Part shown: positions 13,812 to 62,446 of the stretch, in pieces
Layout of the letters: every line of letters begins with the position of its first letter
How positions within the stretch are numbered: the first letter of the stretch is position 1
Source of the DNA: Minisyncoccota bacterium
GTDB taxonomy: Bacteria; Patescibacteriota; Minisyncoccia; Phycocordibacterales; UBA9973
Direction: 5' to 3'
Length of the DNA stretch: 64,000 nucleotides
Assembly: GCA_041650615.1 (NCBI GenBank)
Contig: JBAZKU010000001.1
Span: 458,750 to 522,749 of the forward strand
Translations under genes and position numbers: made by a program
The notes under the pieces: model-generated
Told to the model about the DNA's origin: nothing
The model's database searches: none
Seen by the model: only the letters and a program-made list of their open reading frames with translations

Positions 13812-14069
13812 TTACACTATATCTCGCGGAGTTTTTTTACCCAGAATTTCTTTTAATTTTAAAAAAATTTGATCTTTTTTTAAAAAAATCTCATTTTTAT
13901 AAATAGGTTTTATATTTAAATAAACCGTATTGTTTTTTATTTTTATATCTTCGGATTTTATTTTTACTCCAATAACCTGATATAAAATATCTATAATAGA
14001 ATTTTTTTTAATTTCTTCAGAAAAAAGAATTTTGTTAAAATGTAATAGTAAATCTTTTATTTCAATCAT
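13812..14069 (-). CDS. Small protein downstream of dnaN (possible DUF721-like)
   Basis: 85-aa ORF in the position DUF721 proteins usually occupy after dnaN; weak assignment. Confidence 0.3.
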   Translation of the reverse strand: MIEIKDLLLHFNKILFSEEIKKNSIIDILYQVIGVKIKSEDIKIKNNTVYLNIKPIYKNEIFLKKDQIFLKLKEILGKKTPRDIV

Positions 14070-20209: not shown

Positions 20210-20215
20210 AAAAAA

Positions 20216-21577: not shown

Positions 21578-22553
21578 TAATTTGCTTTGTCATACTTTGG
21601 AAAAGCGTATTAACATTATTTATGGCGACTTTAATTAAAGCGCTTCCGGATTGTCCGGCTTCCGGTTTGATGGACAATATATTTTTAGGATCTGGTGTTT
21701 GTATTTTCTCTCCATTTAAAGACCAATCAAAGACAAGGTCGGATGAATTTATATTTTTAGGTGAAAAGAAATAAGGTTCTACTATGAAGATTTCTCCGTC
21801 CGAATTTATTTTAAATCCATCACTCAAGGCTGTTTCCCATTGTACGCCGAGTAATGGGTCATTTCTATAAAAAAGTATTTTAGGATTTGCCGTGCTTAAG
21901 GTTATTTTTCCGGAGGCATTAGTACTCCCGGTAATATCGGACACTTTTACTTCAACAACATTTCCTTTATCCAAATAACTATTTTGAAAAATAAAATAAT
22001 TTTTACCCCATCCGGAAGAATTAGATTGAGCACTTCCATCCTTGGTCCATATATAAGACAAATTGTTTATATTCACTTTCCCGTATTGATTTACTAAATT
22101 CGGTATTGCTACCACTTTAAAGGTTCCTTGACTGGGGACCAGTGCTTTCCCTCTATAAAAAGGCGGAGTGTAAGAATCAGGGGCTTCCCAGAGTATATCT
22201 ACTCCCGATGGCGTTAAAGTCAGAGTTTTTGATATGGTTTCCCCGTCAATTGTGTTTATTATTACAGATAAAATAGTAGACGATCCTGCACTTCCCACCT
22301 TAAAAGAAAAAGATTTTTTCCCAATTCCTGCGCTTGCCTCTTGGCCATTTACTGACCAAGAAATATTCGCCTTATCAAGATTGATAGCATAACTATTTAA
22401 AGTGGCATCTGTATTTTGATTTGGACTTGGGTATTGGGGGGAAACATTAAGAACAATGTCCGTATCTTGTACCTGAGCACTCGCAAAAGACCCAAAAAGG
22501 GTAAAAATAAGCATAAAAAGCAACACTGAATATTTTTTTGCCATTATTCTCAT
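21564..22553 (-). CDS. Secreted beta-rich protein of the T4SS-like operon
   Basis: Cleavable signal peptide (FASAQV); overlaps the downstream gene by 14 nt (translational coupling). Confidence 0.5.
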   Translation of the reverse strand: MRIMAKKYSVLLFMLIFTLFGSFASAQVQDTDIVLNVSPQYPSPNQNTDATLNSYAINLDKANISWSVNGQEASAGIGKKSFSFKVGSAGSSTILSVIINTIDGETISKTLTLTPSGVDILWEAPDSYTPPFYRGKALVPSQGTFKVVAIPNLVNQYGKVNINNLSYIWTKDGSAQSNSSGWGKNYFIFQNSYLDKGNVVEVKVSDITGSTNASGKITLSTANPKILFYRNDPLLGVQWETALSDGFKINSDGEIFIVEPYFFSPKNINSSDLVFDWSLNGEKIQTPDPKNILSIKPEAGQSGSALIKVAINNVNTLFQSMTKQISVSF

Positions 22554-22557
22554 TGTA

Positions 22558-24405
22558 TCATTTTTTTTCTTCCATCTCTATTCTCTCCATGTCTTGTTTT
22601 GCTTTCTTGATTGATAATATCTGAGATGGGTCGGAAGTAATAATTTGATCTTCCGTATAAGAAGATATAACCTTTATGGCGACATGTTTTAATCCGGCGA
22701 AGAATATTCCTTCCCCCACTTCGGATTCCAAAAGCAAATATTTTTCTTCATCTGTAAGATTGAAGGTTTTTTGCAAAGCGTCTATGGTAGTTGGGGACTG
22801 TTTTAAAAGGAGTTGGATGGAAGAGTTGGTAATAATTGGAATTCCATATGGAGATTTCATAAAATCTGCCGCATCTTGGGTGATGGTGGAAAGCCCCAAA
22901 TAATATTTTCTGCCTCGCTTGGCGATGGAATACAAGAAAGAGGCCGTATCTTCGGATTTCATCATCCACCATGCTTCATCAACAATCAAAAGACGTTTTT
23001 TCAAATTCTTGCGTATGGTTATCCAAATATAATGCATTACGATATACATTGCGACTGGTTTTAATTCGTCTTCCATGTCGCGAACAGAAAATACCACGAA
23101 TTTTTTATTAATATCCACATTTGATGGTCTGTTAAGGAAAGTAGACCAAGACCCTTTTGTATATTTGACCAATCTTTGCATTACTGAATCACTTCCTTCC
23201 ATTCCTCCCAGCACCATTTCAAAATCCGAAAGGAGTGGCGGTTCAATGTTTGAAAAATCCGAATCCGGAGTTATATCTTTCATCGCATAAGTTTCTGAAA
23301 TAGCGCGGTCTACCATAGAATCTTCCTCCGGAGTGAGGCCACCTAACATCAATCTGAAAAGTCCGACTAGATTAATAATATTTGATCGGAGAACATCTTC
23401 GGCTGATTCATCTTCGCGCGGAATTGGCAAGTCAAAAGGGTTTATGTGATGGTCCGAAGAAAGAGAAATATTAAAATATCGTCCTCCTACGGCTTCAGCT
23501 AAATATTCATATTCTCGTTCAGGGTCTATTACTATAATATCCACATCAAACATTAAGGACCTCAAAATTTCCAGTTTTGTAGCATAACTTTTTCCTGAAC
23601 CGGATTTGGCAAAAGTCACAGAATTATAGTTTTCCAGTGAAAACCTGTCAAAAATTACCAAACTTGAATTGTGCCTGTTAACACCATAAAGTATTCCCAT
23701 ATCGGAAGTTAAGTCAAAAGAAATAAAAGGAAAGACGCTTGAAAGCGGTTCTGAATTTAATTTTTGATGAATGTCCAATAAATCATTGCCGAGTGGCATG
23801 ACGCTCTTAAAACCTTCTTCTTGCTGGAAAAGAGCCGGTTTGATATAAATCAACTTTGATTCAAGTATTGATTTTATTTCATTTTCAACTTTATAAAGTT
23901 CCAAATCATTATCGGCATAAATCGTAATATAAATGCTAACGTCAAACATTTTTTGTTGTGCTTGGATGAGATTATCACGGAGCCCCTCCAGGTCCTGATA
24001 TGCGGTATCAAGCATCGGATCGCGAACCATCCCCTTTCCTTCGCGTACATTTATTTGGCTTTGAACTTCGGCAACTTTTTTCTGAAATTGTCTTAAGGCA
24101 AGCGATGTATCTATGGGATGGATAAAAATTGAAACATCAAAAACCTTATCTAAATTAATTATCGGAGAAAACCAGTTATCACTTAAGAATCTAGGGTAAG
24201 AAATTATAAAAAAAGTACGGGCGATTTTGTCACCCAGGTTTATGGTCTTGGATTCAATTTTTAAAGCGGATGGCGCAATAATATCTTGAAGTTCCAGTTT
24301 AGCGGATTCATATATTTCTTCTGGCAATACCGCTAAAACTGAAGCATTTGCTCCTTTGGCTTCATCCGTTTTATTTTTCCCGAGCAGTTTATCAAAAATT
24401 CCCAT
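22558..24405 (-). CDS. VirB4/TrbE/CagE-family type IV secretion ATPase
   Basis: N-terminal FFIISYPRF...VSIFIHPID region typical of VirB4; Walker A FAKSGSGKSY; Walker B LLIVDEAWWMM (the DEAW motif). Confidence 0.85.
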   Translation of the reverse strand: MGIFDKLLGKNKTDEAKGANASVLAVLPEEIYESAKLELQDIIAPSALKIESKTINLGDKIARTFFIISYPRFLSDNWFSPIINLDKVFDVSIFIHPIDTSLALRQFQKKVAEVQSQINVREGKGMVRDPMLDTAYQDLEGLRDNLIQAQQKMFDVSIYITIYADNDLELYKVENEIKSILESKLIYIKPALFQQEEGFKSVMPLGNDLLDIHQKLNSEPLSSVFPFISFDLTSDMGILYGVNRHNSSLVIFDRFSLENYNSVTFAKSGSGKSYATKLEILRSLMFDVDIIVIDPEREYEYLAEAVGGRYFNISLSSDHHINPFDLPIPREDESAEDVLRSNIINLVGLFRLMLGGLTPEEDSMVDRAISETYAMKDITPDSDFSNIEPPLLSDFEMVLGGMEGSDSVMQRLVKYTKGSWSTFLNRPSNVDINKKFVVFSVRDMEDELKPVAMYIVMHYIWITIRKNLKKRLLIVDEAWWMMKSEDTASFLYSIAKRGRKYYLGLSTITQDAADFMKSPYGIPIITNSSIQLLLKQSPTTIDALQKTFNLTDEEKYLLLESEVGEGIFFAGLKHVAIKVISSYTEDQIITSDPSQILSIKKAKQDMERIEMEEKK

Positions 24406-24410
24406 AATAT

Positions 24411-25079
24411 TTATACATTTACGCTGGGCGTGACTGCGCCCGGCTCTAATTCTATCTTTCCTTCTAATTCCCCTGGGTTGAAAACTTTATAAAATACCTC
24501 CACGACTTCTTCCGTTCCTAATTGAGCTGATTTTATGCCACAGCGCGAAAGTCCTTGCTGTATTACACTTACTCTTTCTTCCAGCTGTGATCTTTTTTCT
24601 TCAAAATCCAATTGATTTTTGATCTCCTCTTCCTTTGTATTTCCCTTTGAAAACAAATTTTTTAATATTCCGGATTTTGGCCCCAAATTTACGTGTGTAT
24701 AAGGCACTACAATAAAAAAGTTTTTTGTCATAATACTTACCGATTCGGTAAAATTTCTGATAAATTCTATATATTCTTTTGTCTGCAATTTAAGTAACGG
24801 TTCATTTTGCACTTTCATTCTGTTTTCTAAAAGCAAAAGGTACGGTCTAATGTCCAGCCTTCTTGATTGTACGGATATTTGAATGGAAAAATCCAAAGTA
24901 TTCAAGAAATTTTGGAATTGAAGTATTGTAGCTTGCTGTTCATCATTTGATTTTAAGGACAAGTTCACTGAATTAGCCAGCACTACCGCCCTAAGCCCCC
25001 CGTCTTTTAAGACAACAATACCATCACGGACTTCCTTGATCGGGACAAACTCTTGAGTTGCTTTTGCTTTTAATGCCAT
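24411..25079 (-). CDS. Hypothetical protein of the T4SS-like operon
   Basis: 222 aa, no TM; tightly packed between the VirB3-like and VirB4-like genes. Confidence 0.45.
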   Translation of the reverse strand: MALKAKATQEFVPIKEVRDGIVVLKDGGLRAVVLANSVNLSLKSNDEQQATILQFQNFLNTLDFSIQISVQSRRLDIRPYLLLLENRMKVQNEPLLKLQTKEYIEFIRNFTESVSIMTKNFFIVVPYTHVNLGPKSGILKNLFSKGNTKEEEIKNQLDFEEKRSQLEERVSVIQQGLSRCGIKSAQLGTEEVVEVFYKVFNPGELEGKIELEPGAVTPSVNV

Positions 25080-25086
25080 ATATTAA

Positions 25087-25536
25087 TTACGAATTATTCT
25101 CTTCCTTTTTCAAATCAAGAACATCCAAACTCCAAGCTAAATCTCGGAGTTTGCTTCCGCTGAGTCGAACCCCATTTTGATTCATCGTTTCATTTTTTAA
25201 TTCAACTGCTGCTCCTATCTCTTTTTGTTGTTCCCTTTTTACTTTAATTGTGTGCCTTTTCCAAATATAAAGCTTATTTTGCAGAGTATATTTTATTCCA
25301 GCTTCAACCATATTGATAAAAGGCTTGCCGTTTGGATGGTAAAAAGTGAGAGCTACTGATAATCCTGCTACAATCAAAATTGGTATGGCCCCCAACCACA
25401 ATCCTAATAATTTAAATAATATGTAACATATCCCTGCTCCCCCTACCAAATACACAAATTCCTTAAAGGTAAATGGGCCAAAAATTTTATCTTCTATTTC
25501 CAAAAATTGTGGGACTTTGAATTGCATATGAATCAA
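25087..25536 (-). CDS. Small two-TM membrane protein, VirB3-like
   Basis: 149 aa with two adjacent TM helices (GAGICYILFKLLGLWLGAIPILIVAGLSVALTF), placed just upstream of the VirB4 region as in Gram-positive T4SS. Confidence 0.45.
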   Translation of the reverse strand: MIHMQFKVPQFLEIEDKIFGPFTFKEFVYLVGGAGICYILFKLLGLWLGAIPILIVAGLSVALTFYHPNGKPFINMVEAGIKYTLQNKLYIWKRHTIKVKREQQKEIGAAVELKNETMNQNGVRLSGSKLRDLAWSLDVLDLKKEENNS

Positions 25537-25568
25537 TTATAAACTACAAACTATCGGCCACCTAGCGT

Positions 25569-26240
25569 CTAATCAATGGGCATTCTGTACGGGTCTACTT
25601 TTGGAATTTCAGTGCTTGGTTTTATTGGGATACCGGAATCTTTTGTCATATTAGTAAGAGAATGTTCGGTTTCAACTGTTGGAATTTGAAAAGACCCGGA
25701 AAGTTTTTGTGCCAGTATTGGATGTATTTCCTTACCTGTTTCTGAATCAATAGGAAGATGGGCAAGTTCCTCTTTTGAAGGAGCAGGAAGTTCTTTTTCA
25801 GCCAACAAATCGGGAGTTTCCAAGTGTTTCAACATTTCTTCCCGGCTTTCCAGGGGTTGCTCTTTTGATTCCTCTGATGTTTGTGTTTGTTTATTTTCAG
25901 ATATTTTTTTTATTTCAATATTTTTTACAAGTTCCTCGCGAATTTTTTTAAAAACTCTTTCATTCATTTCATTTACTAATATATCTACCTGAGCTCTTGG
26001 GATATTCATTCTCTTTTCCAGTTCCTTCGGATAATCTTCTGGATTAATAAGCCCGCAAAGTAACAATTCCGTCTCAATCTCAAGGTCTTCCAACTGTGTA
26101 TAGCTGTATCCTTTCTCTGCTCTCATCCCCAAAATTATTCCCTTCCAATCAATTGCATCAATAGCGTGTTGGCTTTCTTCTGATAGTCCTGTCTTCGCTT
26201 TTTCTATTTTTATTTTTAGTAAATCTACTGTGTTTTCCAT
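25569..26240 (-). CDS. Hypothetical acidic protein, paralog of 26249-26749
   Basis: N-terminal ~70 aa align with the neighbouring ORF (ESQ.AI.A.DW...L..E.L). Confidence 0.5.
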   Translation of the reverse strand: MENTVDLLKIKIEKAKTGLSEESQHAIDAIDWKGIILGMRAEKGYSYTQLEDLEIETELLLCGLINPEDYPKELEKRMNIPRAQVDILVNEMNERVFKKIREELVKNIEIKKISENKQTQTSEESKEQPLESREEMLKHLETPDLLAEKELPAPSKEELAHLPIDSETGKEIHPILAQKLSGSFQIPTVETEHSLTNMTKDSGIPIKPSTEIPKVDPYRMPID

Positions 26241-26248
26241 AATATTTA

Positions 26249-26749
26249 TTATATAACAAACTTATTTTTAATATCCGTAATTTTAGAACTATTATCTAAC
26301 GTAGTTGTTCTAGAATCCTTAGTAGGTATATTTGAATTATTTTCTTTTTTTATAAAAGCAGAATAATCTCCGCCAGAAACTATAAAATTAAGGGTTTGTT
26401 TCCAATTTAGGTTTTTGTTTTTTAAATTGTCTTCAATTGTTTTTCTTATCGTTTCACTTATTGGGCTAAATATCTTTTTATTTACTTCTTCTGCAATTTT
26501 TTCCGCTTCTTCCTTGCTTGTTCCTACATTATTCTCAATATTAAGTGCATATTCATCTACATCTACCAATCCCACTAAAACTAATCCAGTTTCTACTTGG
26601 AGATCGTTTACCTCACTTTCAGTGAGTAAATTTTTTTTACCAATTTCTTCTGAGATATTCCCCCAATCAAAAGCATTAATAGCATCTTGTGATTCTTTTG
26701 GCAAATTTATCATTTCTTCTTTTATTTTTTGTTTTAATTTTTCAGTCAT
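26249..26749 (-). CDS. Hypothetical acidic protein, paralog of 25569-26240
   Basis: Shared N-terminal motif (LPKESQDAINAFDWGNISEEIGKKNLLTESEVNDLQVETGLVLVGL). Confidence 0.5.
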   Translation of the reverse strand: MTEKLKQKIKEEMINLPKESQDAINAFDWGNISEEIGKKNLLTESEVNDLQVETGLVLVGLVDVDEYALNIENNVGTSKEEAEKIAEEVNKKIFSPISETIRKTIEDNLKNKNLNWKQTLNFIVSGGDYSAFIKKENNSNIPTKDSRTTTLDNSSKITDIKNKFVI

Positions 26750-26761
26750 AAATTTTTATTT

Positions 26762-28726
26762 TTAATGCGGTTTTTCTCCACTATCTAATTTTGTTCCAGT
26801 TCTTATTTTTCTGGCAGCCTCATCTGCTCCAGCTCGGCTATATGCACCTAATTTAAATATTTGATTTAAGGTTTTACTTGTATTCCCTGATATCTTTTTT
26901 GCGTAAGCAGTTGTAATTTGATCACTCTTTACATCTAATCTTTGTTTTGCTTCACGTACATCTTTTTCAAAATCTTTTATACTACCAGAGCCCCCACTTG
27001 CCAGACTCCCCGCGTCTCTTATTGTTTCCTTTCTGGCTTTTGCAGCATCTAAACTAGCTTTTGCAGTGGCCATAGCTACTATGTCGTTAGCATTTTTTGC
27101 TTCTTTTAGATCTATTCTAGCCTTATCTATTTCTTTATCTACTTGTGCTAGGTCAAGTTTTACTGGGAGAGTAGCTTCTTTTAATTTAATCTCTGCGTCA
27201 GCTACTTCATCTTTTTCCTTTCCAATCCCTCTTTTTTCTAATTCATCCGCTCTCTTTTGTCTTCTCTCTACTTGCTGTTTCTTCATTTCTGTCCACCCCC
27301 CCTTTAAGTTTTCAGTACTGCCAATTCCCCCAACTAAAAATCCTCTACCTAGATTTATACCAGTCTGTTTTTGAAATGCTTTTCCCGCTCCAGTTTGTCG
27401 TATATCCCAACTACTCTTTTGCGTAAACTTACCTACATCTTTAAATACACTAGCAGTACGTTTGAGCCCCAATCTTTCCGCACCCTTTGCTGCTTGACTA
27501 GCAAGATATCCCCCACCCCCACCCAAAGCTACTCTTCCTGCCAAAGCAGCTCCTCCCGTTGCTGCCCCCAGCGCCAATCCTCCTGCCATTGCGCCAATAC
27601 TTGTTATTGCCTTCCCCATTTTGCCAGAATATTCTACTGCTAATTTTTTGGCCATGGTCAGGAGCATAAAAATAATAGCGAAAGGAATTATTACACTCAT
27701 TAAATGTTGCATTATATTTTCCATACCGGTTAAATTTGGGTTGTCAGCATAACTTATAATATCTGTAAGAAATTTAGTAAACAATACAATAATATACAAA
27801 AAGAATATAAACAAAGGAGCGAGCATTGCGTTTTCTATCAAATTTTTCCACCATTCTTTGTGACCGAAACCCGGGATATCAAAAGGAACACTGTATGATA
27901 TAAAAGCAATAGGAGAAAAAATCATAGATATCCAAAGAGAAACCACTCTCCCTACAAAAAGAAGAGCCACTGAAAAGAATATATAGGTCATATAAAGAAG
28001 AATTGCGGCAATTATGAGGGTCATAAAAATAAAAGTATACGCATTGGCGTCATATACTGGTTGCGTAATAAGTTCTACAGGATTGAATTTATCAACTAAT
28101 CCAACTGAAATAGTTTTTTGTCCACCAACCCCAGCTTCTGAATCTTGTAATTCACCATTTACTTTTGGAGCACTTGCATCTTTTGAAGTTATATTATTGT
28201 AAAATACTTTTGCCAGAATATTTGAACCATCAATAACTAACTTTGTAGTGAATAAGCTGAAATTTATAACTAAAGCAACTATAATAACTGCGCTAATTAA
28301 TTTTTTATTATCTGTAACATTTAAGCCGAGGATTGTTTTGATTGCTACATACAGTAAGGCAATTATAAAAAATATATTTGCGACATCTCTCACCGCCCCC
28401 CAGCCTTGTTTTACAAAATCATTGGTATATGAGGAACTATTGGTGGAATAATATACAAAGAAGTCAAGAAATTCTCCAGCAACCCGAGCAATAGCGGCAG
28501 ATACTGACCAAATTATATAAGTTAACTGCGCAGTACAAGCTGAAAGACTAATAGAAGTAAAACTAGTACAACCTAAATCAAGTTCTGTTTGTGCCCTAGC
28601 TTCATTAATTTCCACTCTCAATGTAAACTGTTGTTTATAATTTATTTTAAATCCAGCTGAAATAGGCGCCATAAAAATAGCCACCATGATCACCGATATT
28701 AAAATTTTTGATAAATGTTTTTTCAT
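26762..28726 (-). CDS. Polytopic membrane protein with C-terminal coiled coil, VirB6/TrbL-like
   Basis: Signal peptide, >=6 TM helices in the N-terminal 400 aa, Gly-rich segment, long charged coiled-coil tail. Confidence 0.55.
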   Translation of the reverse strand: MKKHLSKILISVIMVAIFMAPISAGFKINYKQQFTLRVEINEARAQTELDLGCTSFTSISLSACTAQLTYIIWSVSAAIARVAGEFLDFFVYYSTNSSSYTNDFVKQGWGAVRDVANIFFIIALLYVAIKTILGLNVTDNKKLISAVIIVALVINFSLFTTKLVIDGSNILAKVFYNNITSKDASAPKVNGELQDSEAGVGGQKTISVGLVDKFNPVELITQPVYDANAYTFIFMTLIIAAILLYMTYIFFSVALLFVGRVVSLWISMIFSPIAFISYSVPFDIPGFGHKEWWKNLIENAMLAPLFIFFLYIIVLFTKFLTDIISYADNPNLTGMENIMQHLMSVIIPFAIIFMLLTMAKKLAVEYSGKMGKAITSIGAMAGGLALGAATGGAALAGRVALGGGGGYLASQAAKGAERLGLKRTASVFKDVGKFTQKSSWDIRQTGAGKAFQKQTGINLGRGFLVGGIGSTENLKGGWTEMKKQQVERRQKRADELEKRGIGKEKDEVADAEIKLKEATLPVKLDLAQVDKEIDKARIDLKEAKNANDIVAMATAKASLDAAKARKETIRDAGSLASGGSGSIKDFEKDVREAKQRLDVKSDQITTAYAKKISGNTSKTLNQIFKLGAYSRAGADEAARKIRTGTKLDSGEKPH

Positions 28727-30469
28727 TTATTTTTGAAAATAATATTCATAACTGGAAGCGTCTTTAAAGACAGTGGTTAAATTTCGGATATCCACTATTT
28801 TGTTGTCAAAATATTCATACACAGTTAATCTATTCCCGATTAGTTGAAGCTGATAAGCTGCTATATCCGGGAAGCTGACTCGTATTTCCTGACCATTGGA
28901 ATCAATATAACCGAAGGCTTTGGCAAAAGTATGAGAAAGGTCTTCCGCAAAAGTTTGTAGATTGGTCCCTTCTTGGTACCCATACGTTTTTGCAAATAAG
29001 GAATTTTTAATAATTTGTCTGGTGAAAACTGTTTCAATCCCTTCGTGGTAACGAACGATAGCATCCGAAGGGGGGGTGCTTGTCTGCCCCAAAACAAGAT
29101 TTGTCCATGTTCCTGTTCCTGTACTGCTTGTTCCCGAAGTAGTTGTCCAAGTTCCGGAACCTGTACTGCTTGTCCATGTTCCTAAACCATTTCCTAGTCC
29201 GACCCAAGTAACACTTCCTGTTCCTCCTGTTCCCGAAGTAGTTGTCCAAGTTCCGGAACCTGTTCCAGTTCCCCAAGTTCCGCTAGTTCCTTCATTGTCA
29301 GTTGTCCAAATTCCGGATTCATTAGTTGTAGTTGTAGTTGTTGTAGTGGTGGTGGTAGGAGTTGTAGTTGTTGTAGTGGTAGTGGTAGTAGAAGTTGTAG
29401 TATCCCTGCTCCCTCCTCCACTTGTGCTTGCACTAGAAGAATTTGTCGTAGTAAAATTTATTATTTGTGGCGCTGGAAATATTTTTTCTTCACCGCTAGT
29501 TGTAATATTTTTTACTGTAGCTCTGAATTGGTATTCTGTGTTTGGTTTTAATCCGGACAAGCCAAATTTTATGTCTCCATAAAGATTGGCATTATTATCC
29601 ATATTATAAGTTTGTTCTCCGGCTGAAACCCACGATGCGACACAAGCAGGATATACTCCGGTCCAACCGGTCGGGCATCCATTATTAACATTTTCTCCTG
29701 TAGGTATCACTAATTTTGCTTCTCTATATTGAAAGTAAGTTTTGACTTTTTCATTTGTGATTGTTCCATCAGAATTTGTTTTTGGAGAGCAATAGGAACC
29801 GCTCAATTGAGCAGAAGTTGATTTTATATTTTTTACGCTTTTTGTTTCTACAGTTGTGTCATAACAATTGGTATGAAAGCTTTTTACGGCACTTTCTCCG
29901 CCATAAGATATATTTTCTTTATTGGAAAGTATTGCGCAATAATAATATGTTGTATTTGGGCTTAAGCCGGTTATTTGTTGATAAAAAGAATTTGTTTCCT
30001 GGGTAGAATTGAAAAGAGAACCTAAACCTGGGGTGAAAAATGGAGCAGAAGTATAATTATTTCCTTTTCCATCTTTAGTAAAGCTTGCTCCTAAGTGAAT
30101 ATCCCCTGTTGAAACCATATTAGTGCCATAAATATCATTGCAGAAAATCGGTGAAATAACCGCTTTTGAATATCTAAAATATGCGGTAATTGGAGACATT
30201 TGGGTGACTCCGGTATTACACGGTATCCCTGTTCTTGTGCTATATCCTTCAAATGAGGTGCATCCCAACTGGTAAGTTGTAGTTATAGTGCCTGTCCCAT
30301 GTAATGTCGCAGTAGTTTGAGTAATATTGTTTGCGGAATCGGTAGAAAAAGAAAGAAAAGAAGGTGTATAGGCTTGCAAAATAAATGGAGCAAGAAATAA
30401 TGAGATTATTAGAATTTTTAATATATTTTTTTTCATTTCTTTTTTAATAAATTCCGATTGTATTTTCAA
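28727..30469 (-). CDS. Secreted Thr/Gly-rich repeat surface protein
   Basis: Signal peptide; poly-Thr tract (T10-P-T11) and repeated GTGSGTWTTTSG units; tandem ACN-codon repeats at DNA level. Confidence 0.6.
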   Translation of the reverse strand: MKIQSEFIKKEMKKNILKILIISLFLAPFILQAYTPSFLSFSTDSANNITQTTATLHGTGTITTTYQLGCTSFEGYSTRTGIPCNTGVTQMSPITAYFRYSKAVISPIFCNDIYGTNMVSTGDIHLGASFTKDGKGNNYTSAPFFTPGLGSLFNSTQETNSFYQQITGLSPNTTYYYCAILSNKENISYGGESAVKSFHTNCYDTTVETKSVKNIKSTSAQLSGSYCSPKTNSDGTITNEKVKTYFQYREAKLVIPTGENVNNGCPTGWTGVYPACVASWVSAGEQTYNMDNNANLYGDIKFGLSGLKPNTEYQFRATVKNITTSGEEKIFPAPQIINFTTTNSSSASTSGGGSRDTTTSTTTTTTTTTTPTTTTTTTTTTTNESGIWTTDNEGTSGTWGTGTGSGTWTTTSGTGGTGSVTWVGLGNGLGTWTSSTGSGTWTTTSGTSSTGTGTWTNLVLGQTSTPPSDAIVRYHEGIETVFTRQIIKNSLFAKTYGYQEGTNLQTFAEDLSHTFAKAFGYIDSNGQEIRVSFPDIAAYQLQLIGNRLTVYEYFDNKIVDIRNLTTVFKDASSYEYYFQK

Positions 30470-33218
30470 ACGGATAAGGATTTCCTAACCGTATGTATTT
30501 TGATCCTTGGGTTTCATGACCATAAGTATCAACTAAGTCACCTATGTATAACCTTTCTGGTCCTTCTCCAGGGAATTTAGAAAGATCAGTTGCATTTGAG
30601 AAAAAGGTAAAATTTAGAAATCCGGGGTCATAGATAAGATCATCGTTTAGATAAAGTGATGGTCGCCCCGATACCAAATTAGAATTAGCATCTGGCATTG
30701 TATTTAAATAACCGCTTCCCCATGGGTCTGGGAGTACTTGAAATCCATTATTAATCTTTTTTGTAAAATTATTATAATCATAAAGTATTGGATGTGGATA
30801 AGTCATCCTTTTAACGGAATTAACATTAAAGTCACTCCAGTCTGGATTGTACACTAGATTAACTCCTGGTCCCGCTGAAGAGAAATTTGTTATGTTTTGT
30901 GGGTTACTGAGAAAGGCCTCACAACCATAAGGTCCTTTCAAAAGATCATTATAGATGTAATTTTTTTTGTCAACGATTTGCTTATATAAGTTATCAGCGC
31001 TAGCTATATCATTTCCATTAACCATCTCTAAAGATAATCTTCCGAAAGCATTTATTTGAGTTTTTAATTCGTTTTCATATACGTCACCTCCGTCCGGGTA
31101 TTGCGCATTCAACAAATCAACAGCATCTTTTATTTGTCCTAATATATTTACAGTAGTTTTTAAAGAAATTATTTTATCTTCGTTGTTTTTTATCATCTGA
31201 GAATATCCAGTCAATTGATTAAAACTAGCGGCTGCTTCTTTAGAAACTGCAGGTAAAATTTCCGGACTGGAAAAATAAGTTTTATTCATTATTTCAATGT
31301 ATCTGCTTAATATTTTATTCAAAATCTGAGCTAATCCAGCTTGAGTTGATATATTATTATCCTGTGGATCCATAGAAGTATTGTTATGGGCATTACTTCC
31401 ACCATCATCACGAACTCGGAGTCCATAACCTGTTAACAAATAAAATAGATAAGAGTATTGCTTTCTGGCTTCGTAGGAAAGTTCCCCTGGATCATCAGAT
31501 TGTCCGAAGATTGAACCTAATATACCGCCAATGACAGGGATAGAACTGACAATATTAACAAAGGTGCTGTTCCCGGGCGCTGAATTTGCTCCGGGAATCA
31601 CTATATTTGTCAATGTTTCTTGCGCGTCTTGTTCCCAGCCCGGATGAGGTCCTGGAATACAATAATCCAATTGATAGATAGCTGGTATAAGTCCATATGC
31701 ATTGGAACGTCCTGTAACTACATCAATTTTATAAGGTTTTCCATCGGTGGTGGAATTGAGTTCTTTATTTTGTAGCGCGAGTTTATCAGAATAAGTTCTT
31801 TGCTCGTCTATTAAAGCTTGAGTAAGGTCTGTGCGGATATTGAAATCCGGATTGGCAGCTAGCCAAGAACTTGTAAGTTGAGAAGGCTCAAAATCCTTTT
31901 CTGTTTGGGTTTGAAATATAACGCCTGTGCTTACGTTGCTTGTGGTATACAAAGTTCCATCTGCCCCCTGATTTGAGAGACCAGCAAACCCTTTTTCCAT
32001 AATAGTGGAAGAGAATTGGCCTAAGAGGGCATCTGTAATAGCCGCAACAGCATCATTTAAATCTGTTGCATTTAGATATGCATTATTTTGATAATTAATT
32101 GCTGTCGTAGCCGCCTCGGATATTAATTTCCCCGGTGTAACATACTCCCATCTTTTACATATGCCTATTATGTTTCCTTCAGAATCCTTTTCTCCCGCTA
32201 TTAAAGCTTTATTATGTTCTTCCCTTGTAAGACCCACTGGGTCGGCGCAACGTTGGTCACCCAAAAATCCATTTGCCTGCGCTAGGGCTTCATGCACAGC
32301 CTCCGCTGTTGACTGTGTTGTTCCTTCTAATCTTTGCTGTAATTCATTGTCAGCCATTAATTTAAAACCAAGAGGATTATTAGCCGGGACTTGGGTCATG
32401 GCTGTCCAAGCGTTCCATCCGCCTTGGCTGAAATCTTCTTGAAAAGTTATCGCGGAATATTCTGGGTTGGTTTTTTGAATAAGTTCATTCAAAGAATAGC
32501 GTGCGTTATCTTGAAATTTATTATTGAAAGCTATAGCTGTATTTTGCATCCAAACTTTACCGAATGGAAATAATTGCGGGTCGCTTATTTCTAAACCAAA
32601 TTGCAATACTTCATTTTTGGCAATATCTCCAAAGAATTTACTTGAATCTTGGATGAAGGCAGGACTGCCGTCAAAACCGCTATTAATCCAATTAACCGTA
32701 CTGACAGTTAATTTTTGCAGAAGCATTTTTATAATTAATCGCCCGATGCTTTGGATGCAAGTAGAGTTTGCATTCATAGATTCAGTAGCCGTCTTCGTTG
32801 CCTGGGTATTTGCATTAATTGTATCTATTTTTTTTGCTGTTGCTGTTCCTTCAATATTAACCTTAATGGAATCACTTTCACTTGTTAATGAACCCGCTGT
32901 ATCATCTAGCATTTTAATTTCTCTTCCATTAAGATCAGAAATGCTAGAAATTTCCCCAAAATCTGTTATTGTTTCCCCTGAAAAATTTTCTGAACTAGAA
33001 TTTAATAAATTTCCAATCCCACTAAACAAGCTTTTTACTCCGCTATTTATTACATTTTTACATTGTGGTAATATGGCAATAGCTGGGGCCAGTCCGGTAG
33101 CATATCCTGTTAAACTTTGTGCTTCGGCCTTTTTAGGAATAAAACTCAAAGGCATCAATATTGTACTTATAATTAGGATGGGAGGGATTATTAAATTAGT
33201 AAGATATTTTTTCTTCAT
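30444..33218 (-). CDS. Large secreted protein (924 aa) of the T4SS-like operon
   Basis: Signal peptide/TM at the N-terminus, no recognisable catalytic motifs; 26-nt overlap with the downstream gene. Confidence 0.6.
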   Translation of the reverse strand: MKKKYLTNLIIPPILIISTILMPLSFIPKKAEAQSLTGYATGLAPAIAILPQCKNVINSGVKSLFSGIGNLLNSSSENFSGETITDFGEISSISDLNGREIKMLDDTAGSLTSESDSIKVNIEGTATAKKIDTINANTQATKTATESMNANSTCIQSIGRLIIKMLLQKLTVSTVNWINSGFDGSPAFIQDSSKFFGDIAKNEVLQFGLEISDPQLFPFGKVWMQNTAIAFNNKFQDNARYSLNELIQKTNPEYSAITFQEDFSQGGWNAWTAMTQVPANNPLGFKLMADNELQQRLEGTTQSTAEAVHEALAQANGFLGDQRCADPVGLTREEHNKALIAGEKDSEGNIIGICKRWEYVTPGKLISEAATTAINYQNNAYLNATDLNDAVAAITDALLGQFSSTIMEKGFAGLSNQGADGTLYTTSNVSTGVIFQTQTEKDFEPSQLTSSWLAANPDFNIRTDLTQALIDEQRTYSDKLALQNKELNSTTDGKPYKIDVVTGRSNAYGLIPAIYQLDYCIPGPHPGWEQDAQETLTNIVIPGANSAPGNSTFVNIVSSIPVIGGILGSIFGQSDDPGELSYEARKQYSYLFYLLTGYGLRVRDDGGSNAHNNTSMDPQDNNISTQAGLAQILNKILSRYIEIMNKTYFSSPEILPAVSKEAAASFNQLTGYSQMIKNNEDKIISLKTTVNILGQIKDAVDLLNAQYPDGGDVYENELKTQINAFGRLSLEMVNGNDIASADNLYKQIVDKKNYIYNDLLKGPYGCEAFLSNPQNITNFSSAGPGVNLVYNPDWSDFNVNSVKRMTYPHPILYDYNNFTKKINNGFQVLPDPWGSGYLNTMPDANSNLVSGRPSLYLNDDLIYDPGFLNFTFFSNATDLSKFPGEGPERLYIGDLVDTYGHETQGSKYIRLGNPYPFENTIGIY

Positions 33219-45139: not shown

Positions 45140-45646
45140 ATGACAGTAATAAAAAATAAAGAACAAAGAGTTGGAGTTTTTATTGATACACAAAATTTAT
45201 ATCATTCGGCTCGCAATTTATATAATGCGCGAGTAAATTTTGGCGCGGTTTTGAAAGAAGCAGTAGCGGGAAGAAAACTTGTTCGCGCTGTGGCTTATGT
45301 TATTACTTCCGAAGCGGGTGATGAAAAGAATTTTTTTGAAGCGCTTAGTAAACTGGGCATTGAAACAAAGACAAAGGATTTACAGGTTTATGGTGGGTTT
45401 AAAAAAGGCGATTGGGATGTCGGTTTGGCGGTGGATGCTATTAAATTTGCGCCGAAACTGGATGCGGTTGTATTGGTTGCCGGTGATGGCGATTATGTGC
45501 CGATGGTTGAATATATTCAGAACATAGGCACGCAAGTGGAAGCTATTTCTTTTGGAAAATCAACCTCCGGCAAACTTCGCGAAGCCGTGGATGATTTTAT
45601 TGACCTTTCTCTGAACCCAAAGAAATATTTGATAAATGCGAGATAA
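45140..45646 (+). CDS. NYN-domain (LabA-like) predicted ribonuclease
   Basis: VGVFIDTQNLYHSAR...VLVAGDGDYVPMV NYN signature; inserted between rpsO and pnp. Confidence 0.75.
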   Translation: MTVIKNKEQRVGVFIDTQNLYHSARNLYNARVNFGAVLKEAVAGRKLVRAVAYVITSEAGDEKNFFEALSKLGIETKTKDLQVYGGFKKGDWDVGLAVDAIKFAPKLDAVVLVAGDGDYVPMVEYIQNIGTQVEAISFGKSTSGKLREAVDDFIDLSLNPKKYLINAR

Positions 45647-54881: not shown

Positions 54882-55481
54882 CTAGGATTTGGAGAGAGGA
54901 GTTTTTGACTTAGTAACTATTTCATCAATAATCCCATATTTTTTAGCTTCTTCGGCATCCATAAAGAAATCTCTTTCTACATCTTTTTCTATTTGAGGTA
55001 GAGGCTTGCCCGTGTTTTTAGCTAAAATTTTATTTAAATTGTCTTTTGTTTTTAAAATATGTTTTGCGGTAATAGCAATATCCGTAGCTTGCCCTTCCAC
55101 TCCGCCCAATGGCTGATGAATCATTATTTCCGCATTCGGCAAAATAAATCTTTTACCTTTTTTCCCTGCGGATAAAATAATGGCCGCGCCGGACGCTGCT
55201 ACTCCCACACAGAAAGTGGAAATATCGGGGCGGACATGATTCATGGTGTCTACTATCGCCAAAGTGGAAGTGACAGATCCTCCAGGAGAATTTATATACA
55301 AAGCTATATCTTTTTTTGCGTCTTCGGATTCAAGGAAAAGAAGCTGAGCAATGACAATATTCGCCACATTATCGTCAATCGGACCGGCTAAAAAAACTAT
55401 TCTTTCTCGTAAAAGACGAGAATATATATCATAAGCTCTTTCTCCAAATTGTGATTTTTCTATGACTGTGGGTATCAACAT
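54882..55481 (-). CDS. clpP: ATP-dependent Clp protease proteolytic subunit
   Basis: Ser-His-Asp catalytic triad context ([17 protein letters not shown]). Confidence 0.95.
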
Positions 55482-59953: not shown

Positions 59954-60529
59954 ATGGGAAATAAAAAACCACATTTGATTTTCATTTACGGATTTGTAGC
60001 CGTTGGAAAGCTTACTGTTGCCAAAGAACTTGCGAAATTAACTAAATATAAAATTTTACATAATCATATGATTGTTGATCTTTTCGGTGATCTTTTTGGC
60101 CATGAAAGGCCAGGAACTGTCGAGAAAGCTGAAATTAAAGAATGGTTTTATTTTGAATTAACAAAAAAATTAATAGGTACAGGAGATAATTTTATTTTTA
60201 CTCATACGTATTCAGACTCATATGTTTCTAAAACTGGAATGACTGATTTAGATTTTGTAAAAAAAATTAAAGAAATAGTAACTGAATTAGGAGGTATTTT
60301 TTGTCCAGTGTATCTCTTTTGTTCCGAACAAGAAATGCTTAAAAGATTAAAAAATAAATCACGTAAGTCGCATAAAAAATTAAGATCCTTGAAAATTATG
60401 AAAGAATTAATGAAAAGAGAAAATTTTAAAACACCAGCACCACTTAGAAATAATTTTTTAATGGATACAACTGAAAATTCTCCTAAAAAAGTTGCAAAAA
60501 TGATAAAAGAACATTTTAAATTAGATTAA
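59954..60529 (+). CDS. P-loop NTPase / small kinase-like protein
   Basis: Degenerate Walker A GFVAVGKLT at the N-terminus. Confidence 0.45.
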   Translation: MGNKKPHLIFIYGFVAVGKLTVAKELAKLTKYKILHNHMIVDLFGDLFGHERPGTVEKAEIKEWFYFELTKKLIGTGDNFIFTHTYSDSYVSKTGMTDLDFVKKIKEIVTELGGIFCPVYLFCSEQEMLKRLKNKSRKSHKKLRSLKIMKELMKRENFKTPAPLRNNFLMDTTENSPKKVAKMIKEHFKLD

Positions 60530-60541
60530 GTTTTTTAATAT

Positions 60542-60578
60542 AAAAAAGCCGAACATATTTCTATGTCCGGCTTTTGTC
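60542..60578. terminator. Bidirectional intrinsic terminator (AAAAAAGCCGAACATA-TTTC-TATGTCCGGCTTTTG)
   Basis: ~10-bp stem with one mismatch, A/T runs on both sides, between convergent genes. Confidence 0.7.
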
Positions 60579-60655
60579 TTGACGGGTTAGTTAAATTAAT
60601 TAACTTCCCCATCCGTTTTTTAGTACCATAGTAATCACCTCCTTTCTTTGTAAAA

Positions 60656-61792
60656 TTAATCTATCATTGCCTTTACATTATTTTCGTTGATATTGGGGTA
60701 TGTTCCTTCTTGATCTATTAAACTAGAAAAAGCTAATCTTTCACCGTCTCCCAATAGAGGCAAGATAACTTTTTCTACCCTAGGCATTATACAACATGAG
60801 TTAGGATCAATAACATTTATTTTCCCTAACCACCTAAATGGAGTAGCGCGACAGCCCCCACCACATATTTTTATATATCGACAATTGCCGCAACCAAGAG
60901 AATTTACTGTTATTTTTTTGAAATCAGTAAGCCAATCAGAATCTTTTATTGCATCCTTTATGGATTTGTTCTTTACTGATCCGTATTTGATGTTTAATGC
61001 TGGACAGAATATCAAATCACCATTTGCATTAATGCAAATATTTGCAAAATTATACTCACAAGAGTGACCAGAAAGATTCATTGGAGCATAATCTTCTTTT
61101 TCTATCCAAGAATAATAAACATTATCTATCCTTAGAAGAAAAGGTTTGGCATCTAATTGATGATTTTTTATAACATCAACATACACATTGAACAACCTAT
61201 CATAATCAGAGAAATTTACAATATGGCTGTTTTTTTGTGTTCTGATTGTTTTCCAGAGCTGGCTTAAACGCCAGCAATAAATTCCAGTTTCTTTTAGCTC
61301 TTTATATAAAGGTAATAATTCTGAAACATTTTGCTCATAAACAACCGTTTGAATCATGATTTTACATCCTGGTAGAAACGATTTTAAATTCTTAATGTTT
61401 TTTATGGAAGACAAATAACTACTACCTTCGCGTATTATATCGTTAGTTGCCAACCCATCTAAACTAGTTCTAAACTCTTTTACCTGAGAGAGTTCAGAAA
61501 TAATATTAAGATTTTTTTGAGAAAAATGTTTCCCATTGGTTGATATTATTACTCTTGATTCTTGACCACAGGCCTCTATTATTTCAGGCCAACGAAGGTA
61601 GCGGAAAGGTTCTCCGCCAGTGAGTGTAAAATTTACCACTCCAAGTTCTTTACATTCAGCAATAATTTCCAGCCATCTTTGATGAGATAATTCATCTTTG
61701 CGATATAGAACTGAATTTTTTTCTCCAGCATGACAGTAAAGACACTGCATATCACAATCCCCAGTCAATTCTAATCTAACTGAATTAAACAT
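60656..61792 (-). CDS. Radical SAM enzyme with C-terminal SPASM domain (peptide/protein maturase family)
   Basis: CDMQCLYC (Cx3Cx2C) radical SAM cluster motif; C-terminal CxxC...CGNCRYIKICGGGCRA auxiliary-cluster Cys array; AAGGAG SD. Confidence 0.8.
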   Translation of the reverse strand: MFNSVRLELTGDCDMQCLYCHAGEKNSVLYRKDELSHQRWLEIIAECKELGVVNFTLTGGEPFRYLRWPEIIEACGQESRVIISTNGKHFSQKNLNIISELSQVKEFRTSLDGLATNDIIREGSSYLSSIKNIKNLKSFLPGCKIMIQTVVYEQNVSELLPLYKELKETGIYCWRLSQLWKTIRTQKNSHIVNFSDYDRLFNVYVDVIKNHQLDAKPFLLRIDNVYYSWIEKEDYAPMNLSGHSCEYNFANICINANGDLIFCPALNIKYGSVKNKSIKDAIKDSDWLTDFKKITVNSLGCGNCRYIKICGGGCRATPFRWLGKINVIDPNSCCIMPRVEKVILPLLGDGERLAFSSLIDQEGTYPNINENNVKAMID

Positions 61793-61924
61793 TTTTGTTC
61801 TCCTTATTTTGTTTTCAATGAATTAGTTATTTATTTATAAAATAACAAATTAAATTGATTTTGTCAATACTAAAATATTTTTAATATTTTTTTATGTTAT
61901 TTTAATAAGTGATATACTTTTTAT

Positions 61925-62446
61925 ATGAAAAAATTAACAATAGCTGTTGGAACAACTTCTCTTCAAAAAATTAGCTATCTTAAAGAAGTTTTAAAAGAAC
62001 TTGGGATAAAAGCAGTTATTAAGTCTATTGAAGTAAAAAGTGGAATTTCTACTCAGCCGATAACATCAAAAGAAACTAAAATAGGTTCCATTAATAGAGC
62101 AAAAAATGCGTTAAAGAAAGTTGAGAATGCTGATTTTGCTTTGGGAGTGGAAGTTGGGTATCACAAATATTTAAAAAATAAATATGAAATTTTTTGCTGG
62201 GCTACTATTATTGATAAACATAGTCACCAGATATCAGGACAGTCATATAAATTTTCATTACCGGAATATCATCAAAAAATCTTAAAAAGTGGCAAATATC
62301 TGGGTGATAATTTAGATGGATATTCAAAAAAAGTAAAAGATTCTATTGGTGTATATATAGATAATGCGATTCGTCATCGTAAGCCTTTTATAATAAGCGC
62401 CCTAAAAGACACCCTGGTTAGATATTTAAGAAAAGAAGATTTTTAA
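61925..62446 (+). CDS. Inosine/xanthosine triphosphatase (YjjX/DUF84 family)
   Basis: VKSGISTQPITSKETKIGSINRAKNA and DSIGVYIDNAIRHRKPFIISAL align with YjjX motifs. Confidence 0.65.
   Translation: MKKLTIAVGTTSLQKISYLKEVLKELGIKAVIKSIEVKSGISTQPITSKETKIGSINRAKNALKKVENADFALGVEVGYHKYLKNKYEIFCWATIIDKHSHQISGQSYKFSLPEYHQKILKSGKYLGDNLDGYSKKVKDSIGVYIDNAIRHRKPFIISALKDTLVRYLRKEDF

Follow-up and report, generated by a model that had tools for sequence, protein, structure and literature searches.

The locus described here raises the question of whether a gene of only nine codons can specify the substrate of a peptide-modifying radical S-adenosylmethionine (SAM) enzyme. It lies in a 64,000-nucleotide stretch (hereafter the window) of the genome of a Minisyncoccota bacterium (contig JBAZKU010000001.1, nucleotides 458,750 to 522,749), where a minus-strand gene for a 378 amino acid (aa) radical SAM/SPASM protein (60656..61792) is followed on the same strand by a small open reading frame (mini-ORF) encoding MVLKNGWGS (60600..60629). 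The peptide gene is under selection at the amino acid level and always travels with this enzyme family. Such enzyme-peptide pairs make up an undescribed family of bacteria and archaea with tiny genomes, and adjoin aminoacyl-tRNA synthetase genes unusually often. Comparative sequence analysis indicates that the peptide is probably the leaderless substrate of the enzyme, and that the two form a pair of the type that makes ribosomally synthesised peptides that undergo post-translational modification (RiPPs), the enzyme lacking a RiPP recognition element (RRE).

Conservation of the nine-codon gene

Related loci (designated by L numbers) were retrieved from genomes (37) and from metagenomes (79), and a close set of 39 loci, the window included, was defined by an enzyme at least 44% identical. 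The nine-codon ORF was found in all 39, starting 24-66 nt beyond the point where the enzyme match ends. Most often the peptide is M-[V/A/C/T]-L-K-N-K-Q-P-S, and the variants in the close set are MVLKDKQPS, MVLKNKEGS, MVLKCRDGS, MVLKSRGWN, the MVLKNGWGS of the window, and MTLKNKQFF in L003, a copy which has lost its terminator and is probably damaged. The peptide of L041, MVIKNKQPS, was recognised by eye. M1 and K4 are invariant, position 3 is either L or I, and the length is fixed.

At the nucleotide level the close loci contain 28 distinct versions of this 30-nt sequence. Leucine is specified by CTA, CTC, CTG, CTT or TTA, serine by AGC, AGT or TCA, and proline by all four of its codons; translation starts at ATG, GTG or TTG and always stops at codon 10, with TAA (9), TAG (11) or TGA (8). 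The entropy over the 28 versions is 0.66, 0.54 and 1.33 bits at codon positions 1, 2 and 3, respectively (0.21, 0.06 and 1.16 bits in the majority class alone), and 0.76 bits in the ORF as against 1.42 in the upstream and 1.86 in the downstream flank. Variation concentrated at third positions, a synonymous pattern and a fixed length indicate selection on the encoded amino acids and on a length of exactly nine codons. By these sequence comparisons the mini-ORF is a real, conserved gene.

A Shine-Dalgarno (SD) sequence of the GGAGG type is present at each close locus, in many relatives within the codons for the C-terminal K-K-G-G of the enzyme, and some of the relatives' mini-ORFs overlap the enzyme stop codon. 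A terminator hairpin follows the mini-ORF at each related locus except L003. In the relative loci examined, which come from Patescibacteria, DPANN archaea and metagenome-assembled genomes (MAGs) of uncultured gut Clostridia, the tiny peptide ORFs are absent from the called genes.

Enzyme and peptide have been lost together in L029, where a deletion left a prolyl-tRNA synthetase (ProRS) gene followed by a 41-aa enzyme stub, the mini-ORF having gone too. The enzyme is damaged in L013, L058-L060 (Falkowbacteria-type) and L055, either by an internal deletion of residues 34-157 or by loss of its N-terminal half, and the nine-codon ORF is intact; ProRS is still upstream of the damaged enzyme in L013 and L058-60, and the deleted form was seen on 20 contigs.

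Organisation and expression signals in the window

The mini-ORF of the window reads ATG GTA CTA AAA AAC GGA TGG GGA AGT TAA, the stop codon being included in 60600..60629, and its ATG lies 26 nt past the stop codon of the enzyme gene (60656..60658). Between the two, 10 nt past the stop, begins the AAAGGAGGTGATTACT block. The Shine-Dalgarno sequence itself, AAGGAGGTGAT (60634..60644, minus strand), is an 11-nt match to the canonical anti-SD complement with its GGAGG core 8 nt before the ATG, and is the strongest in the window. Among the 49 window ORFs of at least 150 aa only two have a match of 6 nt or more, one of them being the radical SAM gene (TAAGGAG, a 7-nt match; 61800..61806, minus strand). 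Upstream of the latter is a promoter-like site (61839..61867, minus strand) with TTGACA, a 17-nt spacer, TATTTT and an extended TG (TTGACA-17-TGnTATTTT), which agrees with the consensus at 10 of 12 positions and has the top score within 60300..62100, as a consensus match only. Downstream of the mini-ORF an intrinsic terminator (60544..60575, minus strand) consists of a 14-bp stem, a 4-nt loop and a T-run, and is shared with a convergent gene ending at 60529. The fold z-score of the mini-ORF/terminator region is -5.9, and the SD and AUG are unpaired.

A preliminary description of this DNA had drawn attention to the terminator, to a Shine-Dalgarno sequence unusually strong for the genome and to the lack of a precursor ORF upstream on the same strand, and all of these are confirmed. 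Its perfect 9-mer complement is perfect indeed, though the match is longer, at 11 nt; the mini-ORF is present where it was placed, except that nucleotide 60603 is the last sense base and the ORF with its stop codon reaches 60600; and the 15 nt quoted between the enzyme stop and the SD block has to be corrected to 10 nt.

The pair is flanked by an AAA/dNK-like (kinase-like) gene (59954..60529), convergent to it, and by a gene for a DUF84 NTPase (61925..62446), divergent from it, both identified with Pfam. No same-strand ORF of at least 40 aa, the size range covered by the ORF listing, occurs in the 132-nt gap between the enzyme gene and the DUF84 gene. Because the flanking genes are convergent and divergent, the locus looks from its sequence like a self-contained two-gene transcription unit made up of promoter, enzyme, very strong SD, peptide gene and terminator.

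The radical SAM/SPASM enzyme

NCBI lists a "radical SAM protein" of a Candidatus Paceibacterota MAG that is 100% identical to the enzyme, which has about 58 close relatives at 44-74% identity, those with a named source being from Patescibacteria. Alignment located the Cx3Cx2C radical SAM cluster motif at C13-x3-C17-x2-C20 (61733..61756, minus strand); C17 and C20 are invariant and C13 nearly so, the exceptions being gene calls which start too late. The GGEP SAM-binding motif (residues 59-62) is invariant in the alignment. The SPASM domain (60791..61060, minus strand) comprises C245-x12-G258-x4-C263, C301-x2-C304-x5-C310-x3-C314 and C333, plus the family-specific C253 and C334, and its seven cysteines are invariant in 22 aligned sequences with identities as low as 27%. 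After the domain comes a helical C-terminal extension (residues 335-378; 60659..60790, minus strand) with conserved E340, I343, P345 and L347, which may play a part in peptide binding. An N-terminal RRE domain is absent, the radical SAM motif starting as early as residue 13.

Pfam Radical_SAM (PF04055) was passed with 53.6 bits (cut-off 29.5) and Fer4_12 was also above its threshold; Pfam SPASM (PF13186) was just under its cut-off (17.3 vs 21.5 bits), and the relatives carry a precomputed PF13186 match. The protein is thus a member of the radical SAM superfamily and has the seven-Cys SPASM pattern. In NCBIfam, Pfam and PADLOC no model which would place it in a curated family scored above its cut-off, those that passed being generic. 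The best NCBIfam scores, all below cut-off, were to AhbD (TIGR04545; 89.9 bits, cut-off 500), TIGR04053 (89 bits, 395) and ScmE (85 bits, 400). Scores for the other families of interest were likewise insufficient: NirJ2 (TIGR04055; 72.5 bits, 500), MftC (TIGR03962; 62.2 bits, 265), the KxxxW maturases (TIGR04080; 54.8 bits, 500), viperin (51 bits, 180), PqqE (TIGR02109; 50.5 bits, 381) and anSME (TIGR03942; 48 bits, 349). The best PADLOC pVip match (54 bits) is restricted to residues 5-185, the N-terminal radical SAM part.

An AlphaFold2 model of the enzyme (predicted local distance difference test, pLDDT, 92.6; predicted template modelling score, pTM, 0.90) was compared to the PDB with Foldseek, and matched SuiB first (E 7e-16, template modelling [TM] score 0.68), then SkfB, PqqE, BlsE and CteB, with anSME lower. 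A profile search of PDB sequences returned SkfB, SuiB, CteB and PqqE, SuiB being second-best. When 1.84 billion representative proteins were searched with a profile, about 35 clusters of full-length proteins (approximately 360-390 aa) scored at least 310 bits; many weaker matches were to proteins of 440-490 aa in which the match starts about 100 residues in, and these N-terminal extensions would presumably be the RRE domains of leader-dependent maturases. Homologues at 24-26% identity (L076-L097) are AhbD-like enzymes whose genes adjoin those for HemB and AhbC-like radical SAM proteins, and no LK-type mini-ORF was found near them.

Sequence and model together indicate that the enzyme belongs to an uncurated, RRE-less branch of peptide-modifying SPASM enzymes. 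The 378-aa length, the Cx3Cx2C motif and the seven-Cys SPASM domain of the preliminary description are borne out by sequence and alignment, and its assignment to the peptide-modifying kind agrees with SuiB, SkfB, CteB, PqqE and anSME being the best structure or sequence matches in the PDB. It had looked to profiles for a subfamily; the generic Radical_SAM model passed, and no TIGRFAM/NCBIfam subfamily did. The outcomes it had named as contrary to such a pair, a mini-ORF lacking in syntenic relatives and an enzyme grouping with cofactor biosynthesis, were not obtained: the mini-ORF is in every syntenic relative, and the enzyme stands apart from the cofactor enzymes.

The same peptide core in distant relatives

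Enzymes at 27-47% identity from Patescibacteria, DPANN archaea and Clostridia are also paired with tiny ORFs of the same core, which are upstream, downstream or convergent. Among homologues at 27-35% identity to the window enzyme, the peptide gene is upstream in L014-16 and L062 (Clostridia; MAIKGHCTDD), L067 (MVLKGHWCDS), L018 and L065 ((M)LKGHWCDI), L020 (MSAPVVLKGHCSD) and L066 (MKKAKIVLKGHCSD); downstream in L019/L075, L064, L069 and L068 (MKAPIVLKGHCSD and near variants); and downstream and convergent in L017 and L063 (M(M)TLKGHCTDD). The substitutions among these distant genes are mostly synonymous. A further homologue search and twelve context look-ups added M[T/A]LKGHCTDG, MVLKGHCCSG, MVLKGHWCGD and MLKGHLCEP. 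In L120 (2620..2840) the gene for MALKGHCTDG is present as three tandem copies, each with its own GGAGGAG SD, and the genes that follow encode a small radical SAM protein, the family enzyme, a U32-family protein, an unknown protein and cysteinyl-tRNA synthetase (CysRS).

Longer precursors were also encountered, one of 24 aa ending in ...EILKGHLADCAPD and others of 27 aa and 45-49 aa ending in ...ELKGHLADTQ or ...ELKGHLADCGPSD, and the core peptides therefore span bare forms of 9-14 aa and leader-bearing forms of 24-49 aa. Common to all is a core of x-[L/I]-K, after which most clades have G-H, and the clade of the window N/D/C/S and then K/R/G. As this block matches the ...LKGH... core of the longer deep-branch precursors, the 9-mer looks like a precursor without its leader, which suggests that the window peptide is a leaderless derivative of a RiPP-type precursor, cut down to the core.

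The gene context of several relatives also includes functions familiar from peptide biosynthesis. A second radical SAM gene of the PapB/QhpD-like kind (150-162 bits, below cut-off) is present in L014-17 and L063, and an ABC transporter at L057. A SAM-dependent methyltransferase gene directly follows the MVLKCRDGS mini-ORF in L012 (3561..4313) and L053 (1403..2161), its best NCBIfam match being a daptide-type RiPP methyltransferase (91 bits, cut-off 175). L072 (833..4524) and L126 (1782..5473) contain a 577-aa ThiF/E1-like gene, a 45-aa precursor (MAREY...ELKGHLADCGPSD) and then the enzyme, to which a GNAT acetyltransferase domain is fused. In microcin C, too, E1-like and GNAT functions are found, as synthetase and immunity function, respectively. 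One relative's locus has a peptidase of the S66 (MccF/LdcA) family.

Some further features of these loci were recorded, among them other genes for translation or the stringent response beside the module. In L061 (844..2123) Fmt and Def, recognised by eye from their N-terminal sequences, are encoded convergently after the mini-ORF. A RelA/SpoT homologue is directly upstream of the enzyme in L122 (2497..3942), and a small RelA_SpoT-domain gene is three genes from the module in L118 (756..1367). Downstream of the second radical SAM gene in L015 (5230..8113) and L016 (6227..9110) there is a region of about 2.9 kb which, under genetic code 11, contains no ORF reaching 70 aa (90 aa in L015); the related L014 has CysRS at this position. 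The ORF-less stretch could reflect an alternative genetic code, decay or non-coding DNA.

Homologues at about 31-36% identity to the L019 enzyme include L123 and L124, which are other multi-radical-SAM RiPP clusters without the LK core. In L128, where two radical SAM genes are followed by that for tyrosyl-tRNA synthetase (TyrRS), no LKGH peptide was found, only a 33-aa Tyr-containing ORF in a flanking inverted repeat. The arms of this repeat (3500..3900 and 7470..7870) each contain a near-identical copy of the ORF (MRKKNLKTRKNQKKDLCM[G/D]YDRKVAMKNNYIND), and the unit could be a mobile cassette or a different type of precursor.

Association with aminoacyl-tRNA synthetase genes

In most architectures, and in several gene orders, the module adjoins or shares an operon with a gene for an NCBIfam-verified aminoacyl-tRNA synthetase (aaRS), namely ProRS, CysRS, or the aspartyl (AspRS), tryptophanyl (TrpRS) or leucyl (LeuRS) enzyme. 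The background density of aaRS genes in the window is about one per ~50-60 genes. In the clade of the window an archaeal-type ProRS (TIGR00408, 535 bits) is directly upstream on the same strand in 21 of 27 clustered representative loci, and in L052 it is convergent and downstream. Upstream of the module in the MVLKCRDGS loci L012 and L054 is the gene for a non-discriminating AspRS (504 bits). The KGHC(S/T)D clades adjoin CysRS in at least five gene orders (cysS-enzyme; enzyme-peptide-cysS; peptide-enzyme-cysS; divergent; with a second radical SAM or U32-family gene between), and the KGHW clade adjoins TrpRS in two (L018, L067, L073, L127). In L122 the peptide tail ...LMAHWNNDSGCRL precedes TrpRS (338 bits), and in L119 the tail ...KGHLADCAPD precedes LeuRS (981 bits).

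In every case the amino acid of the neighbouring synthetase is found in the peptide tail: Pro with ProRS, Cys with CysRS, Trp with TrpRS, Asp with AspRS and Leu with LeuRS, the last being weak evidence because all of the peptides contain Leu. The prediction that a TrpRS neighbour goes with a Trp-containing peptide held in L127, which was examined afterwards and whose TrpRS was identified by Pfam PF00579 and by 64% identity to the verified TrpRS of L018. This agreement between tail and synthetase suggests a product acting on or with that synthetase, and such is probably its role. It could be an antimetabolite or inhibitor whose target or immunity gene is linked to the module, or it could regulate growth.

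In the window copy both the ProRS neighbour and the Pro of the peptide are missing. In a neighbour-joining tree its enzyme branches within the ProRS/NKQPS clade, with L001 and L002 as its sisters, and this nesting indicates that linkage and residue were lost together. L055, whose tail is NKEGS, shares the AAA-kinase neighbour of the window. Tblastn with ProRS, CysRS, TrpRS, AspRS and alanyl-tRNA synthetase found no match in the 64 kb, and Pfam analysis of 20 further large window ORFs revealed a single TyrRS (10067..11239), approximately 50 kb away. The 120 best matches of a ProRS homologue search did not include the ProRS of the window genome itself, and no T-box or other Rfam element was detected in 15 loci or around the window locus.

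Comparison with known systems

Streptide, in which StrA/SuiA is modified by StrB/SuiB through a Lys-Trp cross-link, likewise combines a SPASM-type radical SAM enzyme with a short ribosomal peptide. The window enzyme finds its best structural match in SuiB, and the window peptide likewise has a Lys, invariant in the family, and a Trp three residues on. Streptide differs in possessing an N-terminal RRE and a leader-bearing KxxxW precursor, whereas the window enzyme has no RRE, its peptide has no leader and the motif is KxxW (K4-x-x-W7). Most members of the family have no Trp at all, and no dedicated transporter, protease or quorum-sensing context accompanies the window pair. The streptide-like K-x-x-W spacing pointed out in the preliminary description is consequently not the general chemistry of the family, the usual MxLKNKQPS being without Trp, the TIGR04080 score being far under its cut-off and the RRE being absent, although a Lys-Trp link is possible for the window variant.

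Microcin C is made from MccA, a leaderless peptide of 7 aa, by the adenylyltransferase MccB, and acts as a Trojan-horse inhibitor of AspRS. In both systems a leaderless peptide gene, of a kind among the shortest known, has its own strong SD and a hairpin terminator, and both are connected genetically or functionally to an aminoacyl-tRNA synthetase, aaRS inhibition being hypothetical here. The deep-branching relatives with an E1/ThiF-like gene and a GNAT domain (L072, L126) and the relative with an S66 peptidase add to the likeness. Unlike in microcin C, the modifying enzyme here is a radical SAM/SPASM protein and not an E1-like adenylyltransferase, the peptide gene comes after the enzyme gene, and the window peptide ends in Ser, not in the required C-terminal Asn. 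The window has no mccC, mccD, mccE or mccF, and there is no E1-like gene beside the pair; such a gene occurs only in the deep-branching L072 and L126. By analogy, microcin C may be regarded as the closest conceptual precedent.

The RRE-independent SPASM/twitch enzymes anSME, PqqE, MftC and the epimerase YydG/EpeE share the fold and auxiliary-cluster architecture and likewise lack a fused RRE, anSME and EpeE recognising their short core motifs directly. The anSME, PqqE and MftC family models nevertheless fail on the window enzyme, PqqA and MftA are far longer than a 9-mer, and the C/S-x-P-x-R motif of sulfatases is not in the window peptide. No PqqD/MftB-like partner, downstream cofactor genes or tetrapyrrole genes neighbour the pair in the window, and no sulfatase was identified among the scanned window ORFs of at least about 310 aa. 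AhbD and NirJ have a SPASM-like C-terminal domain in common with the enzyme and AhbD-type models give the best NCBIfam scores, but they occur in a haem-pathway neighbourhood, whereas the window neighbours are the AAA-kinase-like gene and the DUF84 NTPase. The module works like a RiPP enzyme-precursor pair, streptide-like in fold and microcin C-like in gene size, and fails the defining tests of every named family considered.

Alternative explanations

It is unlikely that the mini-ORF is a translational sensor or regulator, in which ribosome transit over the codon cognate to the synthetase tunes mRNA fate or operon expression and only translation or the nascent chain matters. Such a role would account for the cognate amino acid of the adjacent aaRS in the tail (Pro, Cys, Trp, Asp, Leu), for ORFs situated before the enzyme and aaRS, or directly before the aaRS with a hairpin between (L018, L067, L122), and for the loss of Pro from the window peptide when the ProRS linkage went. 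In the window and the whole ProRS clade, however, the ORF is at the 3' end, followed by a terminator and by unrelated or convergent genes, a position from which it cannot attenuate anything downstream and which is not that of an attenuation-type leader peptide. There is a single cognate codon rather than a run, no T-box or comparable Rfam element, and the x-L-K block and fixed length are conserved whichever aaRS is nearby. The ORF moreover tracks the enzyme and not the aaRS, as the window, L057, L069 and L118 have no aaRS, and L029 kept ProRS when it lost enzyme and peptide. The regulator considered in the preliminary description is hence not the best explanation. Its alternative, coincidence, is excluded by the conservation in 39 of 39 loci: although the overlap of the relatives' GGAGG with the K-K-G-G codons means that the SD-like string alone could be a relic of ancestral C-terminal coding sequence, a chance ORF behind it would hardly always have nine codons, synonymous substitutions, all three stop codons and ATG, GTG or TTG starts, nor have homologous peptides elsewhere and on the other strand in distant relatives. 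We give it next to no credence.

Strict co-inheritance, an enzyme without an RRE, an aaRS neighbourhood hinting at a translation-related target and the retention of the ORF beside truncated enzymes would all suit a peptide that is an accessory subunit or activator, the true substrate being another protein, a tRNA or aaRS-related molecule, or a metabolite. We consider this distinctly improbable, given precursor-like traits such as tandem copies (L120), leader-bearing versions with a C-terminal core and a fast-evolving tail next to an invariant block, a very strong SD, which fits a product required in larger amounts than the enzyme, and closest structural relatives which all modify peptides. The sulfatase-like or surface-protein substrate encoded elsewhere, proposed in the preliminary description, is likewise not needed, and the anSME score is far below its cut-off. 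Very improbable too is an enzyme of a non-peptide family, such as an AhbD/NirJ-type tetrapyrrole enzyme or a prokaryotic viperin, with an unrelated mini-ORF. AhbD is the top NCBIfam match at 90 bits, with NirJ2 listed too, weak PADLOC pVip matches exist and a kinase-like AAA gene is next door; but these scores are far under the respective cut-offs, the AhbD-like homologues sit beside HemB/AhbC-like genes and have no mini-ORF, viperins have no SPASM domain, and the kinase-like neighbour is convergent and shared with one relative only.

Several observations weigh against a leaderless substrate whose product is directed at a synthetase. Translation and modification of the peptide are both predictions from sequence, and the residues common to all variants (x-L-K) offer no obvious shared cross-link partner. 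Pfam and PADLOC revealed no protease, transporter or immunity gene adjoining the pair in the window. An intact mini-ORF beside a decayed enzyme could signify recent decay or an enzyme-independent role of the peptide. The window, L057, L069, L118 and L125 have no adjacent aaRS; the co-variation of tail and synthetase, a post hoc observation, comprises no more than about four or five independent transitions; and the synthetase link could point to translational sensing instead. Finally, the adjacent ProRS is like ordinary ProRS of Patescibacteria (58-80% identity), with one copy per contig seen, which argues against a dedicated resistance paralogue, weakens the inhibitor-plus-immunity reading and favours, not conclusively, a housekeeping gene.

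Proposed function and mechanism

That the peptide is the substrate of the enzyme remains the explanation we favour. In the broad sense of a RiPP, a precursor gene is found beside a modifying enzyme and co-inherited with it, in the close loci and in distant clades, with joint loss in L029. Lacking an RRE, the enzyme would bind the peptide by direct recognition of the x-L-K block. Reductive cleavage of SAM would then yield a 5'-deoxyadenosyl radical which, by analogy to SuiB, may abstract a hydrogen in or next to Leu-Lys. SuiB attacks the C-beta of Lys. With the two auxiliary clusters the reaction would be completed on a residue of the variable five-residue tail, which would be cross-linked or modified in some other way. 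The obvious candidate pair in the window peptide is K4 and W7; since Trp is missing in most relatives, a K4-W7 link cannot be the general reaction of the family. By sequence and analogy the predicted chemistry is a cross-link, an epimerisation or an adenosylation. A fixed rule by which Lys is linked to the residue three positions on was also considered; it fits C, W and D, fails on the commonest tail, NKQPS, and was dropped.

In the 9- and 10-mers starting Met-x-[L/I]-K position 2 is always V, A, C or T, which permits removal of Met and makes a mature peptide of 8 residues possible. The product would accordingly be a small modified peptide, possibly of 8 residues after Met loss. It is possible, if on balance doubtful, that the system is an addressable one, in which x-L-K serves as a constant handle for the enzyme and the tail names one amino acid (Pro, Cys, Trp, Asp or others), the tail being made into a mimic or antimetabolite against the cognate synthetase.

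Other features of the window

Most of the long ORFs in the window have no SD, a match of 6 nt or more being confined to the radical SAM gene, its mini-ORF and a single further gene (4812..5426). A TATAAT-like hexamer stands just 6-12 nt before the start codon of many of these long ORFs, for example those at 2231..4672, 11279..13804, 45140..45646 and 54882..55481, which suggests leaderless or very short-leader mRNAs. dnaN (14066..15163) and dnaA (15400..16743) are side by side on the minus strand, and the window thus probably spans the replication origin region. Large minus-strand ORFs succeed one another in 18884..33218, of which five (329-924 aa) have no Pfam match and one a weak NlpC/P60 match only; with a TraG-like P-loop ATPase at 22558..24405, the run may be a type IV secretion or conjugation-like cluster.

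Significance

With nine codons, the gene would be among the shortest conserved protein-coding genes paired with a modifying enzyme, and its peptide, if a substrate, the first leaderless one known to us for any radical SAM/SPASM maturase. Full-text literature searches for the peptide sequences (LKNKQPS, LKGHC, KGHLAD) returned no relevant paper, and those on radical SAM with Patescibacteria, tRNA synthetase or leaderless peptides nothing relevant; a 2026 paper on tRNA-deacylase-guided genome mining is a conceptual parallel only.

The graded series from leader-bearing 45-aa precursors to bare 9-mers bears on how RiPP enzymes dispense with leader recognition, in a family of Patescibacteria, DPANN archaea and uncultured gut Clostridia MAGs that is invisible to annotation. 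This is a two-gene system whose substrate can be obtained as a synthetic peptide, and the synthetase linkage provides a concrete functional hypothesis, that of synthetase-directed effectors. If the addressable system proposed above is real, the product might be a Trojan-horse weapon with the linked synthetase as its co-evolving immune target, or, in ultra-small symbionts, a means by which the cell restrains its own charging and growth. Such a 9-residue gene product, a microcin C counterpart made by a radical SAM enzyme, would then represent both a new natural product class and a new principle of regulation or antagonism among organisms of the candidate phyla radiation (CPR) and DPANN.

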